Positions 8,684-53,863 of a DNA stretch of 64,000 nt are shown one piece after another. The stretch is taken from assembly GCA_046292385.1 (NCBI GenBank), contig JBKBRF010000006.1:64001-128000 (forward strand). Reading direction: 5' to 3'. The position numbers and the translations under genes were made by a program. The notes beneath the pieces were generated by a model. The model had not been told where the DNA came from, ran no database searches, and saw only the letters and a program-made list of their open reading frames with translations. Numbering within the stretch: position 1 is the first letter of the stretch; each line of letters opens with the position of its first letter. Origin of the DNA: Armatimonadota bacterium. GTDB taxonomy: Bacteria > Armatimonadota > SYMT01.

Positions 8684-9769
8684 TCACTGCGGCGGCTCCC
8701 AGATCTCCCACTGCACCCGCCGCAGGTCATACGCCTTCGGGTAGCGGAAGCGGCCCTTCCGCGCTCGGAGCCCGTCTTCCACCACGGCGAAGTCCAGGTC
8801 GAGGCCCTGCCGCTCCGCGGGAGTCAGCAGCCCCAGCGTCTGCTTCCGAGCCTCCGCCGGACCGGCGAGAAGCGAGGTGAGGGCGTAGAGCTGGATCACC
8901 GGCGCCTCCAGGCCCCATTCGGCTTCGCGCTGCTCGGACCTGAGCCAGTCCTTTGCGGCCCGCTGCTCAGCGCGCAGATACGCCGGGTACACCGCGCCAG
9001 CCTCCACGAAACGGCCACCCCGCCAACCCAGCACCATCGGGATGAAAGGCCCGCCCACGGTAGCATTCTTCCAGCCCGCGAAGCCGTCGTAGTCGGCCAG
9101 CAGCTCGAGCGCGTCGTCACTATCGACATCCTTCGGCTCCAGTCCGGTAATGCGTCGGGCACCGTAAGCGAGAAGACAGGCCGGCTTCGGGCCGAGGGAA
9201 TAGACGTAGTAGTTGGCCCAGATGTTATTCCCGCCGTTCCACTGGCAGAGGATCACCTCCGGCAGTCCGTCCTGCGTCAGGTCTCCGGTCCACTCCACGG
9301 AGACATCGAAGTCGGAGATGCGAGCGGCGGTTCTACCCCGTGGATCCCGGATCTCCAGGGTGGCGAGGGCGCCGTTCGGACGGTCGCGCTCGACCCACTT
9401 CCACAGCTTGCACGCACCGACTGCCTCCACCCGGAGCGGTGCTCGCGGATCCCACGAGGGCGGCTGGAAGCCGTTCGCCGCGACCCAGACGCGGCATATG
9501 GGGGAGAAGAAGACGAACGGCCACTCACGCCCGGTATAACCGTAGCTCCAGCCGTCCCGCTCCTCGGGGATAAGGCGGGGGCCAGGCCCCAGCGCCACCG
9601 GGCGTCCGAGCTCATCGGTCTGCTGACGGAGGGACGCGGCGGGCTGGCTGAAGTCGAAGACGACCGCCGCCGCACCGGCGTAGAGCAGGCCCACGACGAG
9701 CGAGAGCGCGATTCCGATGGTCAGGACGCGGAGGCGCCTAGCTGACTTCTTCTCGCGTAGTTCGTTCAT
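8684..9769 (-). CDS. Hypothetical membrane-anchored protein with FG-GAP-like loops
   Basis: N-terminal hydrophobic helix; GDLTQDGLPEV and KDVDSDDALEL loops. ATG start chosen at 9769. Confidence 0.6.
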   Translation of the reverse strand: MNELREKKSARRLRVLTIGIALSLVVGLLYAGAAAVVFDFSQPAASLRQQTDELGRPVALGPGPRLIPEERDGWSYGYTGREWPFVFFSPICRVWVAANGFQPPSWDPRAPLRVEAVGACKLWKWVERDRPNGALATLEIRDPRGRTAARISDFDVSVEWTGDLTQDGLPEVILCQWNGGNNIWANYYVYSLGPKPACLLAYGARRITGLEPKDVDSDDALELLADYDGFAGWKNATVGGPFIPMVLGWRGGRFVEAGAVYPAYLRAEQRAAKDWLRSEQREAEWGLEAPVIQLYALTSLLAGPAEARKQTLGLLTPAERQGLDLDFAVVEDGLRARKGRFRYPKAYDLRRVQWEIWEPPQ

Positions 9770-9904
9770 CCCCGGCGGGCCCTCCGCGCTGGCCGGTACG
9801 ACATCACGCCGCCTGAAGGGCCGCGCAAGGATACTGTTGGCGAAATCAGCTGAGCAGGATGAACACGAGCGGCCAAGCACTCCGGCGAGATTCCCCTAGC
9901 GGGG

Positions 9905-9932
9905 AAGCGGTGGCAAGCCACCGCACTCCACA
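9905..9932 (+). repeat. REP-like palindrome AAGCGGTGGCAAGCCACCGCACTCCACA
   Basis: Hairpin GCGGTGGC-AA-GCCACCGC followed by ACTCCA, the same tail as the reconstructed IS110 target. Confidence 0.75.
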
Positions 9933-10073
9933 GACTGCACCGGCGCAGTCTCCCTTTCGACGAGAGGGAATCTCTTCCGAGCTAGCCTGTGGAGATTCTA
10001 TGGTTCGCGTCAAGCGGAAAGTTCGAGAGGAGCTCTCGCACGCAGCCCCGCGGAGCCGGCGGCGCCGAAAACA

Positions 10074-11105
10074 TCACGGGTTCGTCGCCGCCGGCTCCGC
10101 TTCGGTGGATCCTGCGGGGACCGGGGCGGGCTCACCCCGCTTCGGGCTCGCCGGCTGTCGGTAGACCCGCTCGGGGTCATACTCTTCCCCGTGCTTCACC
10201 ACCGCCCAACAGACTTTAGCGATCTTGCGGGCGACCGCATTCAACGCTGCCGTCTTCGCCAGACCTTTGGCCAACTCCCGCTCATACTGCTGGCGGAACG
10301 GACTGTCTTTGATCCGGACGTTCGACTTGGCGGCCAGATAGAGCAAGCGGCGTAGCTCGGCATCGCCTTCTTTCGTGAGGCCATACTCCCCCGCCCGCTT
10401 TCCCGATTGCCGTACCCGGATATCCAAGCCGATATACGCCACTACCTGATCCGCGTGGGCGAAGTCATGCGAGGTAAGCCGGGCCGCGAGGGCGGCGGAA
10501 ATCACGGGGCCGATGCCGGGGATCTTCCGCAGGGCCTTGGTGGCGGGGAACTTCTCCTTATCCTGCGCCCGCTGGGCGATCTGGCGATCCAGCGCCGTCA
10601 ACCGCGTCTTGAGGTCGGCGACGGCCTCGGCCAGCACGTCCGCGGCGTACGGGAGCTCGCGGCGCTGCTGCTCCAAGCTGGTGAGGGCGGACCGTAAGCC
10701 ACGGCGGGCGCGCAGGAGTTGTTCGAGAGCTTCCACGTCGGCGCTCTTCACCGGGAACGGGCGCAGCCCCTCTGCTTTGGGTCGGGAAGCGGCGAACATC
10801 GCCAGCCCCCGGGCCGCCAGGCGGTCGGTCGAAGCCCGAGTACTCAGCGAGCGGAGGTAGGCGTGCACTTTACGAGGCGGGGCCAAGAGGACGGTCCGTC
10901 CCGCTTCCCGGGCCTGGTGCACGACCAGATGGCAGTAGCGCCCGGTGGGTTCGACCACCAGGGGGACGTCCGCCGGGGTGCGGGCCAGGAGCTTCCGAAT
11001 GCCGGCCGGGGTGTTCGGCACGGAGCCTTCCCAGGCAATGCGTTCGGAAGGACGGTCGAAGAGGGCGCAGACGAGTTCGGCTTTGCTGACATCGACTCCT
11101 AACAT
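10074..11105 (-). CDS. IS110-family transposase / bridge recombinase
   Basis: MLGVDVSK, VVEPTG, STDRLAA (RuvC-like DEDD domain); IPGIGP, YIGL..RQSG, LRRLLY, AVARK (Tnp_20 domain). GGAG RBS 8 nt before ATG. Confidence 0.95.
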   Translation of the reverse strand: MLGVDVSKAELVCALFDRPSERIAWEGSVPNTPAGIRKLLARTPADVPLVVEPTGRYCHLVVHQAREAGRTVLLAPPRKVHAYLRSLSTRASTDRLAARGLAMFAASRPKAEGLRPFPVKSADVEALEQLLRARRGLRSALTSLEQQRRELPYAADVLAEAVADLKTRLTALDRQIAQRAQDKEKFPATKALRKIPGIGPVISAALAARLTSHDFAHADQVVAYIGLDIRVRQSGKRAGEYGLTKEGDAELRRLLYLAAKSNVRIKDSPFRQQYERELAKGLAKTAALNAVARKIAKVCWAVVKHGEEYDPERVYRQPASPKRGEPAPVPAGSTEAEPAATNP

Positions 11106-11110
11106 GTGGG

Positions 11111-11286
11111 TAGCTCCCGAGGGGTTCCTCTCCCGCACACTTGCGGTACATGGCCGGTCTCCTCACGCGTGAGGGCCGTGGGATTCCTCATCGGCGGTGA
11201 GAGGGAAGAGGAGGTCTTCTCCAGACGTCCGTCCCCGAAGGGCGGCAAGTGCGGATGACCTTCCTCTTCCTTCCCACCTGGAGCTA
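11111..11286 (-). ncRNA. Candidate IS110 bridge RNA
   Basis: Outer stem TAGCTCC/GGAGCTA. Target loop closed by GGAAGAGGAAGGTC/GACCTCCTCTTCC, containing ATCCGCACT and TGGAG. Second loop contains GGAATC and GCAAG. Confidence 0.75.
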
Positions 11287-11505
11287 ACATACAAGTGCGA
11301 ATGCTTGCTTTCGCGCCCCGCGCCAGCGGGGCACCGGAGAAGCTTCTCGATTTCGTCAACAGTATCCGCAAGCGCGTCACTCCGCGAAGAGTCGTGCGGC
11401 GGGACACTTCGACGGGGCTGCTGGAATGACCGTGTGCGCGGCCTCGCTTTCGTCTTGACTGTCCATTCCTGGAGGCGGGGGCGCGCTCCTTCCCGAGAGC
11501 AGCGA

Positions 11506-14500
11506 CTACCCGCGACGCGCCCAGACTTCCACGGGAACGCCGTCCCGGTCGCCGGACCAGAGCTGCTCCGTGCAGGTGCGGCGGAGCAGGTTCTTCCAGA
11601 GCTGGGCGTGGGCGAACGTCTCCTCGTCCGGGCAGAAGAGCGAGAAGACGGAGCGGGAGGCCACGAGGATCAGCTTCTGCTTGGCGCGGCTGAGCGCCAC
11701 GGTGAGGCGGCGCGGGTCGAGCAGGAACTTGCTGCTGGCGAGGAGGTACTCCGGGTCGCTCTCGGTGGCGCTGACGACGATGACGGTGCGCTCGCCGCCC
11801 TGGAACCGCTCCACGGTATCGACCGCCGACCGCGGCGGCCCGTTCTTACCCGCGACGGTGAGGAACGGGTAGGCGAGCTGGAGGTCGGCGCGCTGGGCGC
11901 GGTGCGGCACCACGATACCGAGCCCTTCCTCCGCGTCGAGCGCGTAGAGCCCCGCGTCGGAGAGCGCCTCCAGGACCGGCTCCACCAGGTCGCGCTCGAA
12001 GGCATTGCGGTTCTGGCTGGCGCGCTCGTCGTGGAGCACCACCACCAGCGGGTAATCGGGAGCGAGCACGGCGGCGACGAAGTCATCCGCCAGCTCCCGC
12101 GGCTCCAGCTGCTTGCGGCGGGCGGAGCGGTAGGGGATGCCGTCCTGCTGGTAGACCTCCCGCCGCAGGAACTCCGCCATCTCCGCGTGGAGGCGGAAGC
12201 TCTCCTCGAAGCGGATCACCGGCGGCGAGAGCGGCAGCAGGGTGAGGAAGAGCGACTCGTAGGCGCGGTACTCCTGGAAGGTGCGGCGCGGCTCCGCGGC
12301 CCAGTCGTGCTTCACGATCGGCGGCATCTGGCGGTGGTCGCCAACGACGATGAGCTGGCCGTCGGTGCGGAGCGCGAGACCGGCCATCACCGCTTCCGGC
12401 AGGTTCATCTGCGAGGCTTCGTCGAGCACCAGGCACTCCGCCAGGGCGCAGTCGAAGAGAGCCTTCGGCGATTTCTCCCGGACCATCCCGTAGATGCCGC
12501 CCGGCGTGGCGGCGGCGACGCACCACTGCTGGTCCTGCAGGGCATCGGCCGGCCTCGGATCTCCCTTCTCCCGGCGGGTCTCCTTCGCCAGCGGGATCAC
12601 GCCTTCCGGCGGCGCCTCGCGGCCGTCGATCCGGAAGAGCGGCACGTTCAGGAGGCGCGGGTCGAGGTATCGGTCGAAGAGGTCCCGCCGCTGGTCGCGC
12701 AGCTCCCGCAGCCGCTCCCGGACCTCCACGACGTTCTGGAGCAGCACGTCGGTCGCCGCGTGCGTCTTGCAGGAGACGAGGGCTCGGAGCGGCTGACACG
12801 CCGCCATCGCGCCCTGCAGCCGGGCAAAGAGGGCGAAGGCGGTGGAATAGCTCTTCCCGGTGCCGGGAGGGCCCTGCACCAGCAGCACCGGGTCGCCGCC
12901 GTGCCGGCCGATGAAGGCGCGCTTGCTCTCCTCGAAGTCGTGGAAGAGCCCCGCCGTCCGGAACGCCTCCAGCCCCTCCAGGAACCGCGCCTGCCCGGCC
13001 GCCGCTTCCGTGGGCCAGGCCACGCTCGCCGCCGCGCCCGGGGTGAGCCGCTCGTAGACGGCACTGCGCCCCGTCTGCGCGCCGCGCTCCAGCTCGCAGA
13101 GCGCCTCGACTACCTTCTTGCTCCAGTAGCCGTACCAGTTGTCCGGGGAGACGTCGAGCGAGTAGGCCATGCCTTCCCGCAGGGGCCGCTCGATCGAGCC
13201 GAAGACGAAGCCCTTCATCGCCGCGTTTCCGCGCGAGGCCTGCAGCTCTACCTCCAGCATCGCTCCGGTGATCCGGCCCGCGGCGTCCCGCTCCGGCTGG
13301 ATCTCGACCAGCTCCGCCCGCACGCCGTAGAGCATCTGCTTGGGGGTGGGGGTGAACTCCTGCCGATCCTCCTCCGGCAGCCGCTCGTCGACGGTCCAGC
13401 GAGGGTTCAGCACCACCCGCTCGCCGCGGCGGAGCGTGGTGAGCGCCAGGATCTCTTCCGCGGAGCAGTCGATCCCCTCCGTCTCCAGCCGCAGCCGCAC
13501 GCGGAGGCCTTCCTGGCTCCACTGGCAGGCGTCCCGGTCCTCTTTGGCGAGCTTCACCTTCTGCGCGTCCGGGTTCTGCTGCCGCCACTCCGCGTAGAGC
13601 CGGTCTTTCAGCAGCCGGCGGCGCTCGTTCTCCCGGTTGCGCTCCAGCACCTCGGGGTCCTGGTCTTCCGGGCAGAAGCGAGCGAGCAGCGTTTCCCCCA
13701 TCAGCACGCGGCGCTCCGGGGCGGCGTGGCGGATCGCCTTCCACTCGCCCAGCTCCACGTGCCGCTCGATCGTGACGAACTCGTCCAGCGCCTGGGCCAG
13801 CGAGCCGGCGCGCTCGCGGAACTGCGTCAGCGCCGTCAGGTCGAAGGCTCGCTTCTCCGTCAGCTTGTTGCCGCGGAAGTCGGCGGCGATCCGCTCCAGC
13901 GCTTCCAGCCGCCGCTCCTGGAATTCGCGGATCAGCTCCGGCGTGGCGGCGCGGTAGTCCGCGTAGTCGTCCCGCTTCCCGGCGGGCGGCTCCAGGTCGC
14001 CCCACGCGGCGTAGGCGTACTCCAGCGGGATCTGGCTGTTGAAGCGAGCCCGGCGCGTGTACCAGGCCTCCGCCTCCGGGTCGAGCGTGCCCCACTCGTC
14101 GAAGAGCCGGGCGCGGAACGTCTCCCGGAACGGAGCCCAGTCGAAGCCGAGGTGCGCCGCCACCGCCTGGAGCGACTGGCAGACCATCGGGTAGTTCTTC
14201 AGCTCCCGGATCTCGCGGTCGAGGAAGGTGGCGATCGGGGAGTCGAACGCCGCGAGCTGGGTCATGAAGTCGTAGAGCGCGGGCGCGGTCTCCAGCAGCG
14301 CGGAGAGGTGGCGGGAGAGCGCCTCCAGGAAGAGCCGCTGCTCGAAGCTGTTGTAGAAGACCAGGTGGACCGGCGCGGAGAGGGTGCCGTCCACCGCCGG
14401 CTCCACCAACTCGGCGACCGCCAGCAGCGTGTCGCGCATCCAGGCGGCCAGAAGCGCTCGCTCCCGCTCGGGCGTGTCGGGCGGCCCGTTGGAGAGGTGG

Positions 14501-15795
14501 ACCACGCTCCGGCTCCGTGCCGGCTCTCCGCCGGCGCAGGCGACCACCCGCGCGCCAACCAGGTAGAGCCGGTCGTGGAGGTAATCGTGCTGCGCGTCGA
14601 GGTAGATGCGGACCAGGTTCGGGTTCTGCTCCGCGTCGCAGTAGGGCAGGGAGCCGTAGCCGGAGCCGGGGATGGAGCGCGGCGCCTCCAGCGGATCGCC
14701 CTTCCACCCACGGTAGCGCCGCGCGCGGTGGATCAGCTCGTCGAGGCGCGGGCCGACCGGCCAGGTCGTCGCCGCGCGGGCGCACCGCCCCTCCTGGCCC
14801 GGCGTGGGCGAGAGACTCCAGTCCCGCGGCGCGTCCGGAGCCGCCGGCGCGGGCTCCTTCAGCGCCGCCAGCTCCGAGGCGGTAGAGATGCCGAGCCGCC
14901 GCAGCGCCGCCTTCTCACCCGCAGCCAGGTGCGGGATCAGCGCCAGGTCGTCGGTCTCGGCGCTCCACTTCAGGCAGAGCTCGTTGTAGAGGCAGCCGTC
15001 GCACTTGTAGCTCAGGTGGTAGGAGAGCTCCTCGAACGGCGCGGAGGCGATGCCGCGGGCGGTGGAAGCGGCGCCGGTCACCAGGTCGGCGACGGCATCG
15101 AGGTAGGCCTCCGGATCGGCGACGACCTCCAGCAGCGCGCCGTCCCACCCGAACCGGCGGCGGGTCTCCTCCCGCAGCGCCGCGTCGTCTCCGCCCTCTT
15201 CTCCGCGGAAAAGGAGAGCGGTCCCGATCTCCGCCGCGACCCCCGCCGAAGCGAAGAGCCGCCCCAGCATGGCGTGGTAGAAGGCGACCTGCAGCCGGTG
15301 CTCCACCCGGGCGTGCGCGGAGCTCTTGACGTCCGCGATCAGCACCTGCAGGGCGCCGTCCTCCGCGCGCTCCAGGCGCAGCAGGTCGGCGTCGCCGGTC
15401 AGCAGCCACCCCTCCACCTCTACCCGCAGACGAGGCTGCAGCAGGAGCAGGGCCTCGCCCGGAGGCAGCTCCACGGCGGCCCGCACGATGGCGGCGTTGT
15501 CGTCCTCCCGCTCCAGCGGCTCCCGCTGCTCCCCGAAGTGGACGGAGCGGAACCGCGCGCGCAGCGCCGCCTCCACTTCCCGCTCGAACTGGCGCCCGGA
15601 GCGAGTCAGCAGCGGCGGGATCGCCTGCGGCGCCACGTCGTACTCCCGCAGGAACCGGGAGCCGTGCTGCGCCTGGTGCAGCCGCAGCCGCAGGTAGCGG
15701 GAGCACTGCTCCAGCCGGACGAACTGCGAGATATCGGTGGGGCTCACCCGCAGCGGCGCGGAGGAGGGAAGGAGCGGTAGGAAGACGGGGGGCAT
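11506..15795 (-). CDS. Large PD-(D/E)XK (RecB/Cas4-like, Fe-S) nuclease fused to an SF1 Upf1/DNA2-like helicase (TM0106-like architecture)
   Basis: N-terminal Cys plus CDGCLYNELC; ADLLRL...IADVKSS...QVAFY; Walker A GPPGTGKS, LDEASQ, VGDHRQMPP, TVERFQGGE, RLTVALSRA. Confidence 0.85.
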   Translation of the reverse strand: MPPVFLPLLPSSAPLRVSPTDISQFVRLEQCSRYLRLRLHQAQHGSRFLREYDVAPQAIPPLLTRSGRQFEREVEAALRARFRSVHFGEQREPLEREDDNAAIVRAAVELPPGEALLLLQPRLRVEVEGWLLTGDADLLRLERAEDGALQVLIADVKSSAHARVEHRLQVAFYHAMLGRLFASAGVAAEIGTALLFRGEEGGDDAALREETRRRFGWDGALLEVVADPEAYLDAVADLVTGAASTARGIASAPFEELSYHLSYKCDGCLYNELCLKWSAETDDLALIPHLAAGEKAALRRLGISTASELAALKEPAPAAPDAPRDWSLSPTPGQEGRCARAATTWPVGPRLDELIHRARRYRGWKGDPLEAPRSIPGSGYGSLPYCDAEQNPNLVRIYLDAQHDYLHDRLYLVGARVVACAGGEPARSRSVVHLSNGPPDTPERERALLAAWMRDTLLAVAELVEPAVDGTLSAPVHLVFYNSFEQRLFLEALSRHLSALLETAPALYDFMTQLAAFDSPIATFLDREIRELKNYPMVCQSLQAVAAHLGFDWAPFRETFRARLFDEWGTLDPEAEAWYTRRARFNSQIPLEYAYAAWGDLEPPAGKRDDYADYRAATPELIREFQERRLEALERIAADFRGNKLTEKRAFDLTALTQFRERAGSLAQALDEFVTIERHVELGEWKAIRHAAPERRVLMGETLLARFCPEDQDPEVLERNRENERRRLLKDRLYAEWRQQNPDAQKVKLAKEDRDACQWSQEGLRVRLRLETEGIDCSAEEILALTTLRRGERVVLNPRWTVDERLPEEDRQEFTPTPKQMLYGVRAELVEIQPERDAAGRITGAMLEVELQASRGNAAMKGFVFGSIERPLREGMAYSLDVSPDNWYGYWSKKVVEALCELERGAQTGRSAVYERLTPGAAASVAWPTEAAAGQARFLEGLEAFRTAGLFHDFEESKRAFIGRHGGDPVLLVQGPPGTGKSYSTAFALFARLQGAMAACQPLRALVSCKTHAATDVLLQNVVEVRERLRELRDQRRDLFDRYLDPRLLNVPLFRIDGREAPPEGVIPLAKETRREKGDPRPADALQDQQWCVAAATPGGIYGMVREKSPKALFDCALAECLVLDEASQMNLPEAVMAGLALRTDGQLIVVGDHRQMPPIVKHDWAAEPRRTFQEYRAYESLFLTLLPLSPPVIRFEESFRLHAEMAEFLRREVYQQDGIPYRSARRKQLEPRELADDFVAAVLAPDYPLVVVLHDERASQNRNAFERDLVEPVLEALSDAGLYALDAEEGLGIVVPHRAQRADLQLAYPFLTVAGKNGPPRSAVDTVERFQGGERTVIVVSATESDPEYLLASSKFLLDPRRLTVALSRAKQKLILVASRSVFSLFCPDEETFAHAQLWKNLLRRTCTEQLWSGDRDGVPVEVWARRG

Positions 15796-15828: not shown

Positions 15829-16034
15829 CCGAACGAACGCGAAGACGCGAAGTCACGCGAAGGACGCGAAGGTGGAATGGAGCACGCTAACCCGCGCGCG
15901 AGTGAACTCGGCGCTACATAGAGCGAAGCCCGCCTGCGCGGGCTGGGAACGCGGTGACACGGTCTACCCAGCTTCTCCCCTTCATGTTTTCTTCGCGTCC
16001 TTCGCGCAAACTTCGCGCCTTAGCGTTCGTTCGG
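15829..16034. repeat. Inverted-repeat (REPIN/MITE-like) element with CGCGAAG sub-repeats enclosing a REP
   Basis: CCGAACGAACGCGAAGACGCGAAG..GGACGCGAAG (15829-15871) is mirrored by CTTCGCGTCC..AGCGTTCGTTCGG (15991-16034). Confidence 0.75.
15900..15945 (+). repeat. REP-like family A copy
   Basis: GAGTGAACTC..GCTACATAGAGCGAAGCCCGCCTGCGCGGGCTG. Nearly identical at 30211-30257 and inverted at 53813-53863. Confidence 0.85.
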
Positions 16035-19884: not shown

Positions 19885-22800
19885 CTACGGAGAGATCGTC
19901 AGCTCCGCGCTTCGGACTACCTTCGCGTGGGTGGCGGTGATGGTGACCACGCCGCCCTTCTTCGCCTTCTTGCTCTTGCCCACCTGGATCACGAAGGTGG
20001 CCGAGCTCTTCCCTTTCTTGACTTTCACCTTGCCCGGTACCTTCGCCAGCTTGCCGTCGCTCGAGGTGAGCCTAACGGTGGCCGCCTTGGGCAGCGGCTG
20101 GTTGAAGACGACCGTCGCCTTCACCTTCTTGTTCGGCTTCGTGGCGCCCTTCTGCAGCCGGATCTCCAGCAGCATCAGCGGAGCGCTGCCGGCGAAGTCA
20201 ATCCCGGTGCGAGAGGGGCCGACGCTGACGCTGCGGGACGACGGCTCGAACTCGTAGCCGTCCTTCTCCGCCTTTACGGTGTAGCTTCCGGCACGCACTC
20301 CTTCCAGGCGGTAGGTGCCGTCCGCGCCGGTGGTGGCGGTGTGCGTGCCGGCGGTGACCGTCGCGCCGGAGAGCCCGTTCTTTCCGTCCCGCACGGTGCC
20401 GGAGATCGTGTAGGTGCGGACCGCGGCGGTGAACTCCAGCCCGTCCTGGCTCGGACCGACGGTGACGGAGCGCGAGGCGGGGGAGAAGTCGTACTCCGCC
20501 AGCTCCGGCGTGACCGTGAAAGTGCCGGCCGAAACCCCGGTGATGCTGAAGGTACCGTCGGCGGCGGAGACGCCCGACGCACTGCCCGCGCGGACGGTGA
20601 CGCCCTGCAGGCCCGCGCCGTTCTCCAGGATCCGCCCACTGATGACGAACATATCGGGCGGCGCGACGCTGAAGCTGACGTTCGCCGCGTCCGGCCCGAG
20701 GGTGACGCTCCGCGACGCCGGCAGGAAGGTCTTGCCGGAGAGGGAGGCGGTGACCGTGTAGTCTCCTGCCGGGAGATCCCGCAGGGTGTAGCTGCCGGTG
20801 ACGTTGGTGGTGGCGGTCCGGTCGCCGGCCGTGATCGTGACGCCGGAGAGACCGGAGGTGCCTTCCGTAACCTTCCCACTGATCGAGAAGACGGGGGAGG
20901 CGGAGAAGTCGATGCCCGCCGTGTTCGCGGAGAGGGTGACGCTGCGGTTCGCGGGGGAGAACTTATAGCCAGTCTTCGCGGGTACCACCGTGTAGGTGCC
21001 GCCCACCAGCCCGGCGATCGAGTAGCTGCCGTCCGCGGCGGTGGTGGCGGAGCTGCCGCCCGCGCTCACGGTGACGCCCCCGAGGCCTACTCCGCCCGCG
21101 GTGACGGTACCGCTCACCGTGTAGGTCACCTCGGTGGCGGTGAAGTCGACGTCGTTCCGGCTCGACCCGAGGGTAATCGACCGGGAGGTCGGATTGAAGG
21201 TGTAACGGGTGCTGGTCGGCTGCACCACGTAAGTCCCGTCCGCCAGGCCGTCCAGCACGTAGCGGCCGTCGGCCGCGGTGGTGGCGGAGCCGGCGCCGAT
21301 GTTGACGGTGATCCCGGAGAGACCGGTGCCGTTCAGCGTGATCCGCCCGCCGATGCTCTTGGAGCCGACGGCGCCGGTGAAGTCGACGCCGCTCACGTCG
21401 GCGCTGACGGTGATGCTCCGGGAGGCCGGGGTAAAGACGTAGCCGGCGCGCGCGGGCGTGACGGTATAGCTCCCGCCCTCTACCCCGGTAACGGTGTAGG
21501 TGCCGTCCGCGGCGGTGGTGGCGGTCTTCGTCCCGATCGTGACGGTGACGCCGCTCAGCCCGCTTCCGCCGGCGGTGACGGTGCCGGTGACGCGGTAGAC
21601 GGGCGCGGAGGGCAAGGCGCGGTGCACGTTCAGCCGGCCGGCGGTGACGGCCTTCCCGTTCAGCGCGCTGACCGGATCGGTGTTCTGCAGCAGCCGGTTC
21701 TTCAGGTCGGCGACCGAGAGCCCCGGCGCATAGGAGAGCAGCAGGGCGGCCGCCCCCGCCACATGGGGCGCCGCCATGGAAGTGCCGCTGGCGTAGGCGT
21801 AGCCGTTGTTTGGATAGGTGCTAAGGATCGTCACCCCCGGGGCGCCGAGCTGGACCGTTTGCGCTCCGTAGTTGGAGAAGCCGGCGAGCTGGTCGTTCCG
21901 GTTCAGCGCCGCCACGGAGACGATGTTATCGAGCTGGGTGCTGTACGCCGCCGGGTAGTCCGGGATCACGTCGTTGTTGTCGCCGATCCCGTCGTCGCCG
22001 CCGTTCCCGGCCGCGGCGACGAAGAGCATGCCGGCCTCCCGGGTGCGCTGGATCGCCTCGAAGAGAAGCTGGCTGGGCCCGCCGCCGCCCCAACTGTTGC
22101 TCGTCAGCGCGGCGCCGTTCAGGCGGGCGAAGTCGATCGCCTGGATCGCCCCGGAGGTGGTGCCGTCCCCGTTCCCGTCGAGGAACTTGAGCGGCATGAT
22201 CTTCGCCTGCTGGCAGACGCCGGTCACGCCGATCCCGTTGTTGCCCTCCGCCGCGATCGTGCCCGCGCAGTGGGTGCCGTGACCCTCGTCGTCCATCGGG
22301 TCGGCGTCGTTGTTGATGAAGTCGCGGCCGATCACCTTGCCGGTGTCGTCGCGGAAGATGTTGTCGTTCAGGTCGGGATGGTTGTAGTCCACCCCGGTAT
22401 CGATCACGGCAACCACGACCCCGGCGCCGCGGGTGATGTCCCACGCCTCCGGCGCATCGATGTCGGCATCGGCGGTCCCGCCGCCCTGCCCGCGGTTGTG
22501 GAGCCCCCAGAGCTCGTCGAAATACGGGTCGTTCGGCACCGCGGCCCGGCGGACGATGTAGTCCGGCTCCGCCACCCGCACGCTGGGATCGCGGCGGAGC
22601 TGCGCCAGCGCGCGCTCCACGTTCATGCCGGCCGCGAACTGCGCGGGCGGGATCGCCAGCCGGGCGAAGTGCGGGCTCGCCGCCTCGGCGCTGTCGACCG
22701 CCAGCCCCAGCCGCGCCACCGCGCCGAGCCGGCTCGGCACCGGCGCCCCTTCGTGGAACGCCACCAGCACCCGGTCCGGCACGTAGCCATAGCGGCCGGC

Positions 22801-30210: not shown

Positions 30211-30308
30211 GAGTGAACTCCGGGGCTACATAGAGCGAAGCCCGCCTGCGCGGGCTGAGCGGGCGGAAGGTTCGGGAATTCATCCCTCATCCTTCCGCCC
30301 TCATCCCT
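30211..30308. repeat. REP family A copy followed by GGTTCGGG and a (TCATCCC)n heptamer tract
   Basis: Matches 15900-15945. The heptamer tract is the inverse of 37545-37583. Confidence 0.8.
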
Positions 30309-39173: not shown

Positions 39174-41699
39174 ATGGCGCTTCTACACCCCCCGATGCCG
39201 ATCCTGGCGTGGCCACTGCTCGCCACCGCGGCAATCGCCTCCCTCGCGGTGCGGTCGGCGTCGCTACCCTTGCCGTCCGCAATCGAGTCTCTGCGAAGCG
39301 CAGGTCTCGGCTGGTCCGGGTTCGTACGGAGCGAGGGCCGGCTAGTCCAAGGCTCGGCTTTTTACACGCAGGATGGCGGCTCCGTCCTCTACTTCGATTC
39401 CGCGGGGGTCACGCACCAGCTCCCGACGGGAGCGCGGGAGAGCTCGGGCGCCTGGAACCTCCGGATCGGCTTCGCCGGAGCGCGGCCGGTGCAGCCGGAG
39501 GCGGAGGGGACGAGTCACCGGGTCGCCTGGTTTCACCGCGGGCGCACGCGGTCCGGCGCTCGTCCGGCGTTCTCCGGCGTCCGGTATCGCGGCCTGTGGC
39601 CGGGAATCGATCTCGTCTACCAGGCTGCGGGCTCGTCCCTGAAGTACGATCTTCACGTGGCACCGGGCGCGGATCCGGGCGCGATCCGCTTCGAGTGCCG
39701 CGGCGCCAGCTCGGCGCGGATCGACGCGGAGGGCCGGCTGCGGCTCACGGCCGGCGCGGACGAGCTGGTCGACGACACCCCCGTCGCGTACCAGGTAATC
39801 GCCGGAAAGAAGGTCGCCGTGCCGGCGCGGTTCCGGCTGCAGACCGTGCGTCCGGGCGTCTTCCAGTACGGTTTTCAGCTCGGCCACTACGACCCCACGC
39901 TGCCGCTGGTCATCGACCCCGCACTGCTCCGGAGCTGCGACTATCTCGGCTACGGACGGGCCGCCGGCATCGCGTTAGGGTCCGGCGGCGAGATCTATCT
40001 TTGCGGCGAGACCTCGGCGCCGCCCACCGAAGTGCCGCTGACTGTCGGGCCGGACCTGACCCACAACGGCGGCGAGACGGAAGCCTTTGTCGCCAGGCTC
40101 CGGCTCACGCAAGGCGGCCAGTTCGCGGTGGAGTACTTCGGCTACCTGGGAGGCGACGGCTACGACTCGGCGAAGGGGATCGCCGTCGACGCGGAAGGGT
40201 GCGCTTACCTGGTGGGGGAGACCAACTCGCGAGAGGACAGCTTTCCGGTCCTGGTGGGTCCGGACCTCACCTTCAACGGCACCAGGAGGTACACACCGTC
40301 CTCGACCGGCGATGCCTGGATCGCCAAGGTTACGCCGGATGGAAGTAGTCTCCGCTACTGCGGCTACCTCGGCGGCTCCGAACCGGACGAAGCCACGGGA
40401 GTGGCCGTCGACGAGCTGGGCCGCGCGTATGTTTCCGGAAGGACCACGTCCCCTTCCAGCAGTTTTCCCGCGACCGTGGGGCCCGTCTTGAGTCTCACGG
40501 TCGCGGAGGGGGGCGAGCTCCCCCGTCCGGACGGCTTCATCGCCCGCGTCGCACCGGATGGATCTGCCCTCGAGTACTGCGGCTACATCGGCGGCACGGG
40601 AGAGGACGTGGCCAACGCCGTGGCGGTCGACCGGGACGGGCGCGCGTACGTGGCCGGGAGCGGCCATTCGGGTTCGCCGACGTTTCCGGCCGTCGTGGGC
40701 CCGGAGTTAGTCGGCTATCCCAGCTACCCCGACGCCTGGGTGGCACGAGTTCGCGCTGACGGGACCGGGTTCGAGTACTGCGGCTTCATCGCGGGATACT
40801 ACGGCGAGGCGATTACTTCCATCGCGGTAGACGGAGAGGAGCGGGCCTACGTCGGTGGGTGGACCCGCTCGCCGGAGACCACCTTTCCGGAGAGGGTGGG
40901 GCCGGTACTCCGGTCGCGCGGGCGGGCCGACGCCTTCGTCGCCCGGGTAGCGCCGGACGGAACGCGCCTGGAGTACTGCGGCTACATCTCCGGAAAGGGC
41001 GCGGACGCGATAACCTCCGTGGCGGTAGACGCCCAGGACCGGCTGGTGGTGGCGGGAGAGACCGGCTCCGACGAGCGCAGCTTTCCGGTGCGAGGCGGGC
41101 CGGACCTGCGCTTTAACGGCGGCGGGGTGGATGGCTTCGTCGCCCGCGTCTCGGCGGATGGGCGGAAGCTCGATTACTGCGGCTATCTCGGCGGTACGAG
41201 CCGGCTCGATTCGGCCGCGGCCGTCGCCGCCGCGCCCGCCGGGGAGATCTTCGTCGCGGGTTTCACCAACTCCCCTCCGCAGAGCTTTCCGGTGCGCAAT
41301 GCCGCGCGGGCGGATCGCGGGGGCGGAATCTTCGTGGCGCAGCTATCCTGGCGCGATGAGGGCGCGCCGCCCGAGCGAGAGGCAAGGATCTTCATCTCGC
41401 CCTCGCGGCTCAACTTCGGCCAGGTGCGGGCCGGCACGCAGCGGACGCTGACCCTGCGGATCCGGAACCGCGGCCGCGGGCCGGGGCGGGTCGACGTGCC
41501 GGCGCTGCCGGCGCCATTCAGCACCGAGCCCGGAGAGCTGAGCGTCGCTCCCGGAGAGACGAAGCTGGTCCGAGTCACCTTGGAGCCGCTGAAGCCGGGC
41601 CGCTACGAAACGGGCCTGGCGCTGACTACCCCGGATGATCCCGGCAGCCCGCTAATCCACGTGCCGGTGCGAGCCACGGCGGAAAGGAGCGGGCAATGA
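39174..41699 (+). CDS. Secreted SBBP-repeat beta-propeller protein with C-terminal Ig-like (ASH/choice-of-anchor D-like) domain
   Basis: LWPGIDL..LKYD..PGADP, YDPTLPLVIDP, repeated LEYCGYIGG..D.A..VAVD, C-terminal LNFGQV domain. Confidence 0.85.
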   Translation: MALLHPPMPILAWPLLATAAIASLAVRSASLPLPSAIESLRSAGLGWSGFVRSEGRLVQGSAFYTQDGGSVLYFDSAGVTHQLPTGARESSGAWNLRIGFAGARPVQPEAEGTSHRVAWFHRGRTRSGARPAFSGVRYRGLWPGIDLVYQAAGSSLKYDLHVAPGADPGAIRFECRGASSARIDAEGRLRLTAGADELVDDTPVAYQVIAGKKVAVPARFRLQTVRPGVFQYGFQLGHYDPTLPLVIDPALLRSCDYLGYGRAAGIALGSGGEIYLCGETSAPPTEVPLTVGPDLTHNGGETEAFVARLRLTQGGQFAVEYFGYLGGDGYDSAKGIAVDAEGCAYLVGETNSREDSFPVLVGPDLTFNGTRRYTPSSTGDAWIAKVTPDGSSLRYCGYLGGSEPDEATGVAVDELGRAYVSGRTTSPSSSFPATVGPVLSLTVAEGGELPRPDGFIARVAPDGSALEYCGYIGGTGEDVANAVAVDRDGRAYVAGSGHSGSPTFPAVVGPELVGYPSYPDAWVARVRADGTGFEYCGFIAGYYGEAITSIAVDGEERAYVGGWTRSPETTFPERVGPVLRSRGRADAFVARVAPDGTRLEYCGYISGKGADAITSVAVDAQDRLVVAGETGSDERSFPVRGGPDLRFNGGGVDGFVARVSADGRKLDYCGYLGGTSRLDSAAAVAAAPAGEIFVAGFTNSPPQSFPVRNAARADRGGGIFVAQLSWRDEGAPPEREARIFISPSRLNFGQVRAGTQRTLTLRIRNRGRGPGRVDVPALPAPFSTEPGELSVAPGETKLVRVTLEPLKPGRYETGLALTTPDDPGSPLIHVPVRATAERSGQ

Positions 41700-44167
41700 T
41701 GACTGACGTCGGATGCTCTCGCTTCGGACGCGGGCGCGCGGCGCTGCCGATGCTCTTCGCCTGGCTGGCGGCGGCGGTCCTGCTCGCCGTGATCCCTCCA
41801 GCGGCTCAGGCACAGGCGGCGGCGGTCTCGCGACTCGGGTTCGTTCCGGCTCGCGCTGCCGGCGGGGGGTTCCACCTCGACGCCGGCCCGCACCGCTTCT
41901 ACTTTTCGGCGGAGGGGATTGCCGTCCGGCTGGCGGGGAGCCGGCGCGGGAGCAGCTGGAGCGTACGGATCGATTTCGAAGGAGCACGCCGCGTCGCTCC
42001 GGTGGCCGCAGGCGCCGGCGGCACCCGCGTCAGTCACTTCTCGGGTAGCGCGGCGGAGTGGACTTCCGTCCGGAGCTCCACCGAAATCGTCTATCGAGAG
42101 CTGTGGGCCGGGATCGATCTCCGCCTGAGCGCTGCGGACCGCCGCCTGAAGTACGAGTATCTCGTCTCGCCGGGGGCGAGTCCCGCCGCGATCCGGCTGC
42201 GCTACCGGGGCGCCAGCCTCTCGCTCGACGGTCAGGCGCTCTCCATCTCCACTCCGGCGGGGGTGCTCCGGGACGAGCCGCCGATCGCGTATCAGGAAAT
42301 CGACGGCGAGCGCCGCCCCGTGACATGCGCCTATCAGGTGGAAAGCGACCGGTGCGGCTTCGAATTGGGCGCATGGGACCCCACCCGCGCGCTGGTGATT
42401 GATCCGGTGCTCCTGGTCTCCTGCGGCTACTTCGGGGGCGACCTGGAGGAGGAAGTCCTCGACCTGACGGTCGATCGACAGGGCTACCTCTACCTCGTCG
42501 GAGCCGCGATCACGCGTCAGGACAGCTTCCCCGTTCGGGTGGGTCCGGATTCTACCTATAACGGCGGCTGGAGAGATGCCTTCGTGGCGAAGCTGACGCC
42601 GGACGCCGCTGAGATCCTCTACTGCGGCTATCTGGGGGGAAGAGGGTACGAGTGGGCTGCCGCGGTAGCCGTGGATGAAACCGGCGCCGCCTACCTCGCC
42701 GGCATGACCGATTCCACCGAAGCTTCCTTTCCAGTGCGGAGGGGACCGATCCTGACCCTGAGCAAGTACCGGGAGGCCTTCGTAGCCAAGGTGGCGCCGG
42801 ACGGCTCGGAGCTGGAGTACTGCGGGTATATCGGCGGGTCTGGCTACGACTACGCTGCGGACATCGTGGTGGACCGGCAGGGCCGCGCCACGGTTTGCGG
42901 AGGGACTGACTCCGAGGACCTACCGGTGCGTGTCGGTCCGTCGCTCTCGCTCTCACGCGGCGAATACTCCGACGATGATGGCTTCCTCGCCCGGGTTTCC
43001 GAGGATGGCTCGACGCTGGAGTTCTGCGGCTACCTGGGTGGGACGGGCACGGACTATGTCGCGTCGATCGCCCTCGCGCCGGACGGAAGCGTGTGCGCAG
43101 CCGGCACTACTTTCTCCGTGGACGGTCCGTTTCCGGCACCAGAGGCGCGAGCCGCGTTCCACCACGAGCCCCAGGACGGCTTCATCGCGCGGATCGCTGC
43201 GGACGGCTCCCGGATTCTCTCCACGCGCCGGTTAGGTGGGGACTCGGCGGACAGCCTTTCGTACCTCCGCCTGGACGGGAGTGGCAGGCTCTACGTGGCC
43301 GGCTACACCCGGTCCGATGAGGAGAGCCTGCCGGTGACCGTGGGACCCGACCTCACGGCGAACCGCTGGCGTTCCTCCGACTACCTGAATTACGGCGGCT
43401 TCGTGGCGCGGCTCTCCGCAGACCTGGAGACGATCGAATACTGTGGCTATCTCAGCGGCGAGCTCGAGAGCTGGATCCGCGGCATCGCCCTCGATGACCG
43501 AGACCGCCTGCTGGTGTGTGGGGTAGTATGGAGTTCCGACCGCGGCTTTCCGGTGCTTCCGGCTCCCAACCCGGTCGCCCGCGGCAGCAAAGAGGCCTTC
43601 GTCGCCCGGGTGAGCGAAAGCGGCGCGGAACTGGAGCTCAGCGGTTTCGTTGGCGGCGAGGGGGAAGACCGAGCGACAGATATCGAGGTCGGGCCGGACG
43701 GGTCGGTGTGGGTGGCCGGAAACACCACCTCCGCGCAGACCAGCTTCCCCGTACGCGAGGCGGGGGACATGGAGCTCGGGCGCGTCATTCGCCGGCATCC
43801 CCAGCAGGACGGGTTCCTCGCCCGCTTCGCGGAATGGGACCTGGCACCCGGCGACCGGGGAAAGCTCGGCGCGCTTCCGGCGCAGGTCGGGCTCGGCTCC
43901 GCGCTTCGTGGGAGCGAGCGGACCGCAACGGTGACCCTCCGCAACCGCAGCGGCCGGAACCCGCTGGTGGTGGACGTGCCCCGGCTGCCGGAGCCGTTCG
44001 AGGCGTCCCCGACCGGAGTGCTGCGGATCCCGGCACAGGGGCAGGCGGAAGTGACGATCACCTTCCGCCCCACCGCGCGGATCCGGTACACCACCTCGCT
44101 GGTGCTCACGACCAGCGATCCGAAGCGGCCCCTGGCGCAGATCCCGATCCTCGGACGCGGACGGTAG
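41696..44167 (+). CDS. Second SBBP-repeat protein, tandem paralogue
   Basis: Same architecture; ATGA overlap with the upstream gene. Confidence 0.85.
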   Translation: MMTDVGCSRFGRGRAALPMLFAWLAAAVLLAVIPPAAQAQAAAVSRLGFVPARAAGGGFHLDAGPHRFYFSAEGIAVRLAGSRRGSSWSVRIDFEGARRVAPVAAGAGGTRVSHFSGSAAEWTSVRSSTEIVYRELWAGIDLRLSAADRRLKYEYLVSPGASPAAIRLRYRGASLSLDGQALSISTPAGVLRDEPPIAYQEIDGERRPVTCAYQVESDRCGFELGAWDPTRALVIDPVLLVSCGYFGGDLEEEVLDLTVDRQGYLYLVGAAITRQDSFPVRVGPDSTYNGGWRDAFVAKLTPDAAEILYCGYLGGRGYEWAAAVAVDETGAAYLAGMTDSTEASFPVRRGPILTLSKYREAFVAKVAPDGSELEYCGYIGGSGYDYAADIVVDRQGRATVCGGTDSEDLPVRVGPSLSLSRGEYSDDDGFLARVSEDGSTLEFCGYLGGTGTDYVASIALAPDGSVCAAGTTFSVDGPFPAPEARAAFHHEPQDGFIARIAADGSRILSTRRLGGDSADSLSYLRLDGSGRLYVAGYTRSDEESLPVTVGPDLTANRWRSSDYLNYGGFVARLSADLETIEYCGYLSGELESWIRGIALDDRDRLLVCGVVWSSDRGFPVLPAPNPVARGSKEAFVARVSESGAELELSGFVGGEGEDRATDIEVGPDGSVWVAGNTTSAQTSFPVREAGDMELGRVIRRHPQQDGFLARFAEWDLAPGDRGKLGALPAQVGLGSALRGSERTATVTLRNRSGRNPLVVDVPRLPEPFEASPTGVLRIPAQGQAEVTITFRPTARIRYTTSLVLTTSDPKRPLAQIPILGRGR

Positions 44168-53769: not shown

Positions 53770-53812
53770 GGGGTTGTGGGAAGTCATTGACACGTTTTGC
53801 AGTGGAGTTCTG

Positions 53813-53863
53813 AGCCCGCGCAGGCGGGCTTCGCTCCGTGTAGCCTCGACTTTAGTCCGAGGC
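53813..53863 (-). repeat. REP family A copy (inverted)
   Basis: AGCCCGCGCAGGCGGGCTTCGCTCCGTGTAGCC is the reverse complement of the family A core. Confidence 0.8.

Follow-up and report, generated by a model that had tools for sequence, protein, structure and literature searches.

An IS110-group insertion sequence of an Armatimonadota bacterium whose left end very probably encodes an IS621-type bridge RNA

The DNA analysed here, referred to as the window, is a stretch of 64,000 nucleotides (nt) from an uncultured Armatimonadota bacterium (GenBank assembly GCA_046292385.1, contig JBKBRF010000006.1, positions 64,001 to 128,000 of the forward strand), and all coordinates are counted from its first letter. 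It carries an IS110-group insertion sequence (IS) on the minus strand at 9993-11295, flanked by two CT cores, which are both included in this interval; one core and the body together measure 1301 base pairs (bp). The element comprises a recombinase gene (10074..11105, 343 amino acids from MLGVDV), a non-coding left end of 188 nt (11106..11293), and a non-coding right end of 81 nt (9993-10073), and its features described below all lie on the minus strand. The left end very probably encodes a bridge RNA of the type described for IS621. The first-pass annotation of the window had proposed such an RNA, and this reading is supported by the family assignment of the protein, by the stems of the RNA, and by the covariation of loop 1 with the flanks and of loop 2 with the element ends.

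The element boundaries were located by BLAST in the organism's own assembly (91 contigs, 7.04 Mb), with the element and its flanks as the query. Where the site is empty, the left-flank match extends to 11294 and the right-flank match begins at 9994, with a 2-nt overlap that is the CT core. This dinucleotide is present at both borders of the element (left core, 11294..11295; right core, 9993..9994), occurs once in empty sites, and is shared by target and donor. The junction of left flank, one CT, and right flank is spanned in 67 of the 94 BLAST hits in the same genome, and a 30-nt core around the insertion site is invariant in all of the best 38 copies, which were aligned. The exact 14-mer ATTCGCACTCCACA, which is rebuilt when the element is removed, is found unoccupied 50 times in the same genome. 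In addition, a soil-metagenome contig joins 9992 to 11294 and thereby skips 1301 nt, with 2 ambiguous letters. The CT-core boundaries and the rebuilt target of the first-pass annotation are thus borne out by empty sites in the genome and by the joint in the metagenome contig.

On the left side, the target ATTCGCA (11296..11302) corresponds to the 3′ arm of a hairpin (11297-11314) within a repeat of at least 50 copies, and the right target is CCACA (9988..9992). The target hairpin is adjoined by a 7-bp GC hairpin (11315-11332), and the host repeat spans about 150-170 nt. Many copies of this repeat (11296-11366 and 9900-9992 in the window; at least 50 in the genome) lie close to contig ends, and its self-matches on the reverse strand suggest a partly palindromic unit. 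An Rfam scan of an empty copy of the repeat gave no family above threshold. The donor consists of ATAGAAT on the left (9995..10001, in the right end of the element) and TGTAT on the right (11289..11293, in its left end). With regard to classification, the left end is longer than the right end and a sub-terminal repeat of 3 bp, ATA...TAT, flanks the donor, which places the element in the IS110 group and not in the IS1111 group; PMC11208160 characterizes the IS110 group by a non-coding left end that exceeds the right end in length and by a sub-terminal repeat of only 2-3 bp.

The protein matches the Pfam domains DEDD_Tnp_IS110 (PF01548; 67.7 bits, cut-off 29) and Transposase_20 (PF02371; 76.8 bits, cut-off 21.3), as well as the NCBIfam model NF033542, 'IS110 family RNA-guided transposase' (188.3 bits, cut-off 140). 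The best match among solved structures is ISCro4 (PDB 9t56; E 4.5e-22, residues 2-314), with which it shares the order of domains, the comparison being one of proteins only. IS621 (PDB 8wt6), to which the window protein is only distantly related, is matched over residues 47-313 (phmmer, E 4.2e-20). D5, E52, and D94 are present, so that three of the four acidic residues of the DEDD tetrad are found, and S234 occupies the place of the catalytic serine of the Tnp domain (Transposase_20).

In the window copy, the body of the RNA would run from about 11283 to about 11128. The fold of 11100-11300, a check suggested by the first-pass annotation, has a minimum free energy of -89.9 kcal/mol and is more stable than that of shuffled sequences (-73.3 +/- 4.4 kcal/mol; z -3.77; 0 of 200 as good). 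All four guide strings and the stem arms named in that annotation were found on the minus strand where it had placed them. The target loop (loop 1) is closed by a stem that appears both in the fold and in the alignment of homologues, with a 5′ arm at 11257..11270, in which the A at 11262 is bulged, and a 3′ arm at 11204..11216. Directly inside lies the left target guide ATCCGCACT (11248..11256), which, as had been claimed, matches the left target and core at 8/9 positions; the mismatch is at position 3. The distal hairpin follows (11227..11246; family consensus GCCGC...GACGG), and then the right target guide TCTGGAG (11219..11225), which agrees at 6/7 positions with the reverse complement of CTCCACA and keeps a fixed position in 61 loci. 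The shorter string TGGAG (11219-11223) had been reported as an exact right guide; its location holds, and the guide is corrected to a length of 7 nt, one of them mismatched. If IS621 positions 81-82 are taken as the model, the dinucleotide AA at 11217..11218 may be the handshake dinucleotide of the target loop, and its first A can pair with donor T7.

The donor loop (loop 2) is organized in the same manner. Its basal stem is formed by the central strand CTCTC(A)CCGC (11194..11203), which has a bulged A and an alternative partner at 11272-11278, and by the 3′ strand GCGGGAGAG (11128..11136), with 9 pairs, of which 8 are compensatory. The left donor guide region GATGAGGAATCC (11181..11192) contains GGAAT, matching donor G-A-A-T, and one of its positions covaries with the donor. 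Here the first-pass annotation had named GGAATC (11182-11187): the location and the GGAAT match stand, and the last C mismatches the core T. After the distal stem-loop (11149..11180; 3 pairs, all compensatory) comes the right donor guide GCAAG (11140..11144), which pairs with CTTGT of the left element end through one G-T wobble, as had been described. The following UG (11138..11139), presumably the handshake dinucleotide of the donor loop, is complementary to target positions 6-7 (CA). Outside the two loops, the 5′ strand GGTGGGA (11272..11278) can lengthen the target-loop stem via the central strand, with weak alignment support, and TAGCTCC (11280..11286) forms an outer stem with 11111..11117, a segment that overlaps the likely ribosome-binding site. 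This outer stem had also been noticed previously; it is present in the window copy (-18.2 kcal/mol) and is not clearly conserved across the family, in which the mean is -12.3 kcal/mol compared with -11.6 +/- 0.35 for permuted pairs, so that it was rejected as a family feature.

Several observations weigh against reading this left end as a bridge RNA gene with a matching recombinase. The guides of the window copy are imperfect at its own site, at 8/9 and 6/7, and its left donor guide ends in a base that mismatches the core. No perfect site for these guides occurs in the assembly (0 exact matches and 6 with one mismatch, of which 3 are a variant of the same target repeat). A scan of 9500-11800 against Rfam 15 gave no bridge-RNA family, and the hairpins returned only sub-threshold, microRNA-like matches. 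With regard to expression, the single contig from an RNA library covers 213 nt inside the recombinase gene and is uninformative, and no circle junction was found in the public runs kept as contigs, the uncovered parts of which are uninformative. In the protein, codon 97 (10815..10817, GCG) encodes alanine in the place of the fourth DEDD aspartate, which corresponds to IS621 D105; the position aligns with the second D of T-D-x-x-D in ISCro4 and IS621, and 119 of 119 other homologues have Asp there. K92S and A80V are two more replacements, at positions where all 119 homologues agree. According to the mutational results in PMC11208158, mutation of D11, E60, D102, D105, or S241 of IS621 abolished recombination.

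The role of chance was gauged for the window copy alone, with 20,000 shuffles of its 188-nt left end that preserved the dinucleotides. A 9-mer with at most 1 mismatch to the left target was present in 122 shuffles, and the left-guide match is therefore unlikely to be fortuitous. For the right target, 6872 shuffles contained a 7-mer that differed from its reverse complement at no more than 1 position, so the right-guide match is weak by itself, which is a further point against; both matches in the right order and spacing were rare, being present in 8. Since the right-guide match in a single copy is not beyond chance, the case rests on the comparison with relatives.

A protein search recovered 754 homologues at E <= 1e-30, the best 95% identical to the window protein and the others at most 72%. 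By scanning metagenome contigs with an alignment of 37 homologues, 80 loci with 43-69% protein identity were collected. The clade was also met, in a second scan that covered species genomes, in metagenome-assembled genomes (MAGs) labelled Armatimonadota (Abditibacteriaceae, Capsulimonadaceae, and Chthonomonadales), Chloroflexota, and others. A single-protein query on species-genome contigs gave no match, although the alignment query did find the clade, and a protein search of the genomes of 60 relatives gave only two partial matches, at contig ends and too short for a left end. The conserved donor-loop motif CCGATGAGGAAT was detected in 76 of 81 sequences (the 80 loci and the window). Among these 76, 61 have at least 9 nt of flank beyond a left boundary and 64 at least 6 nt beyond a right boundary. 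Left ends of the homologues begin TGTATG, and right ends finish CTTGACA-N-AACCATAG(A/G)ATCT. The two-loop layout of the RNA is common to about 60 of the metagenomic homologues, in which both loops are closed by a stem and contain a distal stem-loop.

The stems of both loops covary. For the target loop, the window was aligned with 47 of 64 left-bounded loci (48 sequences; region of at most 122 nt, L069 and L089 left out), and RNAalifold predicted the closing stem and the distal hairpin. In these stems 89.3% of cells are paired, compared with 67.9% in shuffles, and the covariation score is 0.584 versus 0.211 (0 of 500 shuffles reach it; slid controls <=0.147). Compensatory changes occur at 13 of 14 pairs; the distal hairpin accounts for 6 pairs, 5 of them compensatory, with 94.6% of cells paired. 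A covariance model built from this alignment (R1) matches 11181-11293 at E 5.9e-16. For the donor loop, the window was aligned with 61 of 68 loci (62 sequences; the six with the longest distal insertions and one clipped at its start were left out), which gave 93.6% of cells paired versus 80.1% in shuffles, a covariation score of 0.416 versus 0.162 (0 of 500 shuffles reach it), and compensatory changes at 11 of 14 pairs. The two internal loops that the first-pass annotation had seen by eye therefore hold up in the comparison of homologous left ends that it had called for. Both closing stems contain a bulged A, and G-A-C closes both distal hairpins; flipped-out adenines at comparable places are described for the IS621 RNA in PMC11208158. 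RNAalifold also paired AUG in the left donor guide region with CA in GCAAG, a 2-bp helix that was rejected as unsupported, both pairs being invariant.

The guides were compared with the flanks without any alignment, and the flanks were swapped among loci as a permutation control. For the left target 9-mer, core included, the best match in the locus's own target-loop region has a mean of 1.90 mismatches (n=61), compared with 2.98 +/- 0.09 after permutation (minimum 2.73 over 200 permutations); 0, 1, 2, 3, and 4 mismatches were counted in 4, 25, 12, 13, and 7 loci, respectively, and most matches sit directly 5′ of the distal hairpin. For the reverse complement of the right target 8-mer, the mean is 0.95 mismatches (n=61, three loci with short regions having been dropped) versus 2.22 +/- 0.09 in permutations, with 0, 1, 2, and 3 mismatches in 13, 40, 6, and 2 loci. 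The position of these right-guide matches is fixed: they adjoin the distal hairpin on its 3′ side and precede the donor-loop motif by about 32 nt. Because the single mismatch is the eighth base in most loci, the right target guide is taken to be 7 nt long. Loop 1 thus tracks each element's own flanks, the outcome of the covariation check proposed at first pass. A long-read Abditibacterium MAG extends this result to one genome: it contains 11 copies of a 1284-bp homologue, all 11 of which are inserted in GGGTGCCCT, the sequence carried by their own loop, and the right target is exact in 7 of the 11 and has one mismatch in 4.

Such patterns bear directly on the alternative that the left end is a mere 5′ untranslated or regulatory structure of the recombinase mRNA, with coincidental guide-like matches. 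The coverage of the likely ribosome-binding site by the outer stem would suit this alternative, as would the frequency of the right-guide match alone in shuffles; however, the outer stem is not conserved, the joint guide match arises in only 8 of 20,000 shuffles, and loop sequences correspond to the flanks of the element that carries them, at about 60 loci and in all 11 copies of the second genome. It is accordingly considered very improbable.

With regard to the donor loop, the donor is nearly invariant, which makes the corresponding test of covariation thin. Its sole variable position, ATAG(A/G)ATCT, agrees with the loop sequence GAGG(A/G)ATCC in 66 of 66 loci (A/A in 48 and G/G in 18). In two loci, a G>A change in the left element end is compensated by C>T in GCAAG, and in three loci with ACAAG the G-T wobble becomes an A-T pair. 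The last base of the left donor guide is a C opposite the core T in most loci, and the base before it varies (C, T, or G) where the donor is invariant; the core is therefore probably not read there. A second donor-guide register, with UAC and AAG flanking a bulge, was rejected, as the bases before CGCAAG vary and the donor does not. Handshake position 7 pairs in 59 of 61 loci (permuted mean 54.3, maximum 57 of 1000 permutations), with only 2-3 informative changes, and position 6 gave no signal in the 61 loci (44 paired versus 44.35 permuted). PMC11208158 describes the handshake guides of IS621 as complementary to target positions 6-7, and the dinucleotide after the right donor guide of the window element may correspond in this respect to that of IS621.

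The central strand has two possible partners, and the two folds are mutually exclusive. Pairing of 11194-11203 with 11128-11136, the counterpart of the donor-loop stem of IS621, strongly covaries. Pairing with 11272-11278, which extends the target-loop stem, is the minimum-energy choice in 54 of 65 homologues, and the complementarity of a locus's own strands is 8.29 of 10, compared with 7.50 +/- 0.08 for permuted ones; on the alignment, the signal for this pairing is weak (72.3% versus 70.4% paired; 14 of 500 shuffles reach it). A separate 5′ stem-loop is not evident in this RNA.

The same genome contains sister copies of the element. A left end 93-97% identical to that of the window copy is present at seven contig ends, and a right end 84-91% identical likewise at seven, with the interiors unassembled; model R1 has exactly 8 matches in the genome, i.e., the window copy and the 7 paralogue ends. 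In the best-covering DNA run, contigs of the window copy have a depth of about 59-68 and those of a variant about 90% identical a depth of about 426-520, a ratio of about 7-8. Within 11101-11299 the variant differs from the window copy at only five positions: 11255 (guide position 2), 11224 (right guide), 11168 (apical loop), and the compensated stem pair 11264:11210, which is G-C in the window copy and A-U in the variant. Read in reverse complement, the variant right guide TTTGGAG is exactly CTCCAAA, the sequence next to 6 of 7 variant right ends; the variant left guide is ACCCGCACT, and the left flanks end in CCGCACT in 7 of 7. The 50-copy repeat has 2/14 mismatches to the guides of the window copy and 3/14 to the sister guides. 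The natural target of the element is a hairpin in a repeat of at least 50 copies, and the window copy is in a near-cognate site, with one mismatch per target guide.

These mismatches may also mean that the present guides are not those that chose the site, the window copy having been placed in trans by a sister RNA or the guides having drifted after insertion. The donor ends of the paralogues and the window copy are identical, and any copy's RNA could therefore handle any copy's circle; in addition, most homologues match the right target at all 7 positions, a regularity from which the window copy departs. The site, on the other hand, differs from the sequence specified by the paralogue guides at three of 14 positions and from that specified by the window copy's guides at two: the window guide is the closer one to its own site, the T at guide position 2 being a match, and 4 of 11 natural copies elsewhere show that one mismatch to the right target can be tolerated. 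Placement in trans or drift is thus a possible explanation that is rated below even. Natural retargeting and mismatch tolerance are in any case visible here without an experiment, in the 50 empty targets, in the sister guide changes accompanied by a compensated stem, and in the 11 of 11 insertions of the second genome.

The sister copies also bear on whether a recombinase with Ala97 can act. A paralogue protein, P0001, likewise has Ala97; it agrees with the depth-rich variant at the two sites that can be checked, C58S (10934) and T170A (10598), and the sister copies share the letters at codon 97. The stretch around this codon is one contig without differences at summed depth. Over the whole gene, the window copy and the paralogue differ at about 84 nucleotides and 17 amino acids, eight of which lie in a poorly conserved tail, and the ratio of nonsynonymous to synonymous substitution rates (dN/dS) is roughly 0.1, as calculated from piece counts and not codon by codon. 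This low value points to selection on the protein since the two copies split.

A genuine bridge RNA could nevertheless be accompanied by a catalytically dead recombinase (DEDA), in which case the eight copies would be non-autonomous and either moved by an intact master copy, unassembled or lost, or immobile. The replacement of the fourth DEDD aspartate together with invariant Lys92 and Ala80 speaks for such a state, as does the inactivity of the D105 mutant of IS621 reported in PMC11208158. Moreover, the assembly does not read through the seven paralogues, and since rare variants are dropped from contigs, one intact copy could be hidden. However, the depth of the seven assembly-collapsed copies, about 7-8 times that of the window copy, points to recent spread, the codon-97 contig is uniform, the dN/dS suggests selection, and the assembly contains no other close recombinase, the sole other match being 31% identical. 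A dead enzyme thus appears rather unlikely. As the uniform codon-97 contig and the low dN/dS count against decay, the chance that the Ala97 enzyme works is put at somewhat better than even.

The match with 31% identity (over residues 49-313) is a different IS110-family gene on the 1413-bp contig C91 (locus L034). This contig was considered as the missing interior of the paralogues and rejected, given that its ends match no sister-copy contig end and that it holds a different IS110 gene. Another feature of the gene region is a 13-bp GC-rich inverted repeat at about 10046-10105, across the recombinase stop codon, which the sister copies keep with one G-U pair and which gave only chance, microRNA-like matches in Rfam.

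Taken with the alternative folds of the central strand, these data allow a tentative proposal, which we regard as possible and less than evenly probable: the lineage would have a working bridge recombinase that lacks both the fourth DEDD aspartate and the invariant lysine beside the third and that has nevertheless reached about eight copies while under purifying selection, and its RNA may switch folds. If the Ala97 enzyme works, the fourth carboxylate would be dispensable in at least some enzymes of this class, and the finding bears on the catalytic model derived from IS621; if it is inactive, the copies are non-autonomous elements carrying a bridge RNA. If the fold switch is real, either the extended target-loop stem or the donor loop would form, and one molecule would present one loop at a time.

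Expression of the RNA appears to be linked to the joining of the element ends. No sigma-70-like site was found on either strand of the integrated copy in 9900-11500. The right end contains TTGACG (10008..10013) and the left end TATGTT (11286..11291), which become the -35 and -10 halves of a predicted promoter with a spacing of 17 nt once the ends are joined at one CT; judged from these motifs, the sigma-70 promoter seems to form only on joining. Across the family, 42 of 66 loci have the -35 box at the fixed offset, in most of the remaining 24 the same box reads 1 nt off (17 tallied, 5 not printed), and the -10 reads TATGNT in 64 of 65. A natural junction of right end to left end at one CT is present in a metagenome locus (L110:990-1030), for which the scan reports TTGACG-17-TATGGT, and represents either a circle or a tandem copy. 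The published cycle, as outlined in the abstract of PMC13626964, includes weak expression from integrated loci and agrees with a junction promoter.

A cycle can be proposed on this basis. Briefly, the element would leave as a circle joined at one CT, and the joining would set the right-end -35 box 17 nt upstream of the left-end -10 box and thereby switch on transcription of the left end. The RNA would fold into two stem-closed internal loops, and recombinase dimers on each loop would then unite circle and target and exchange strands at CT. In this scheme we infer the transcription of the RNA, its binding by the protein, and catalysis.

Apart from Ala97, the element is an ordinary member of a described system. 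Its likeness to IS621 of Escherichia coli, as described in PMC11208160 and PMC11208158, includes an RNA encoded upstream of the gene, in the left end; two internal loops, in both of which the 5′ guide has the sense of the top strand and the 3′ guide is in reverse complement; a CT core with ATA...TAT triplets flanking the donor (ATAGAATCTTGTAT in the window element); a bulged A per stem; a circle-junction promoter; and a repeated extragenic hairpin as the target. Several features differ from IS621. The window RNA lacks an evident 5′ stem-loop, and its 5′ strand can pair with a strand of the donor-loop basal stem; the right target guide has 7 nt, in contrast to 4 nt (G77-G80) in the published account of IS621; and the fourth DEDD residue of the recombinase is Ala. 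In the same segment, ISCro4 keeps K-T-D-x-x-D, whereas the window protein reads S-T-D-x-x-A.

Elements of the IS1111 group, guided by a seekRNA, also combine a DEDD/Ser recombinase with an element-encoded guide RNA, as in the window element. In that group, it is the right end that is long and encodes the RNA, and the sub-terminal inverted repeats measure 7-17 bp, whereas in the window element the left end is the longer one and the repeat has 3 bp. ISPpu10 of Pseudomonas putida is similar in another respect, since it is described in the abstract of bioRxiv 10.64898/2026.03.19.712850 as inserting into many identical copies of one intergenic sequence; its target has a GC-rich stem-loop 5′ of the site, to which the 7-bp GC hairpin at 11315-11332 would correspond, a likeness by description.

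Bridge RNAs have already been predicted for thousands of IS110 elements, as stated in PMC11208160. Among the 12 of 269 papers listed, a literature search found none joining 'bridge RNA' with Armatimonadota or Abditibacterium, and the supplementary orthologue tables of PMC11208160, which lay outside this search, may list the clade. Bridge recombinases are under development as programmable tools for DNA insertion, excision, and inversion, and new orthologues widen the choice.

Some other features of the window were noted. An open reading frame of 1429 amino acids (11506-15795, minus strand), which by eye resembles a large helicase or nuclease, stops about 210 nt short of the element on its upstream side. 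Diverged direct repeats of 102 nt form two sets of six, at 20275-21561 and 40311-43078; they are spaced about 200-400 nt apart, with one gap of 1643 nt, and probably represent repeated protein domains. Finally, 15900-15954, 30221-30266, and 53807-53857 hold the three occurrences, with both orientations represented, of another short repeat (about 46-51 nt) that contains a GC hairpin (GCCCGCCTGCGCGGGC).

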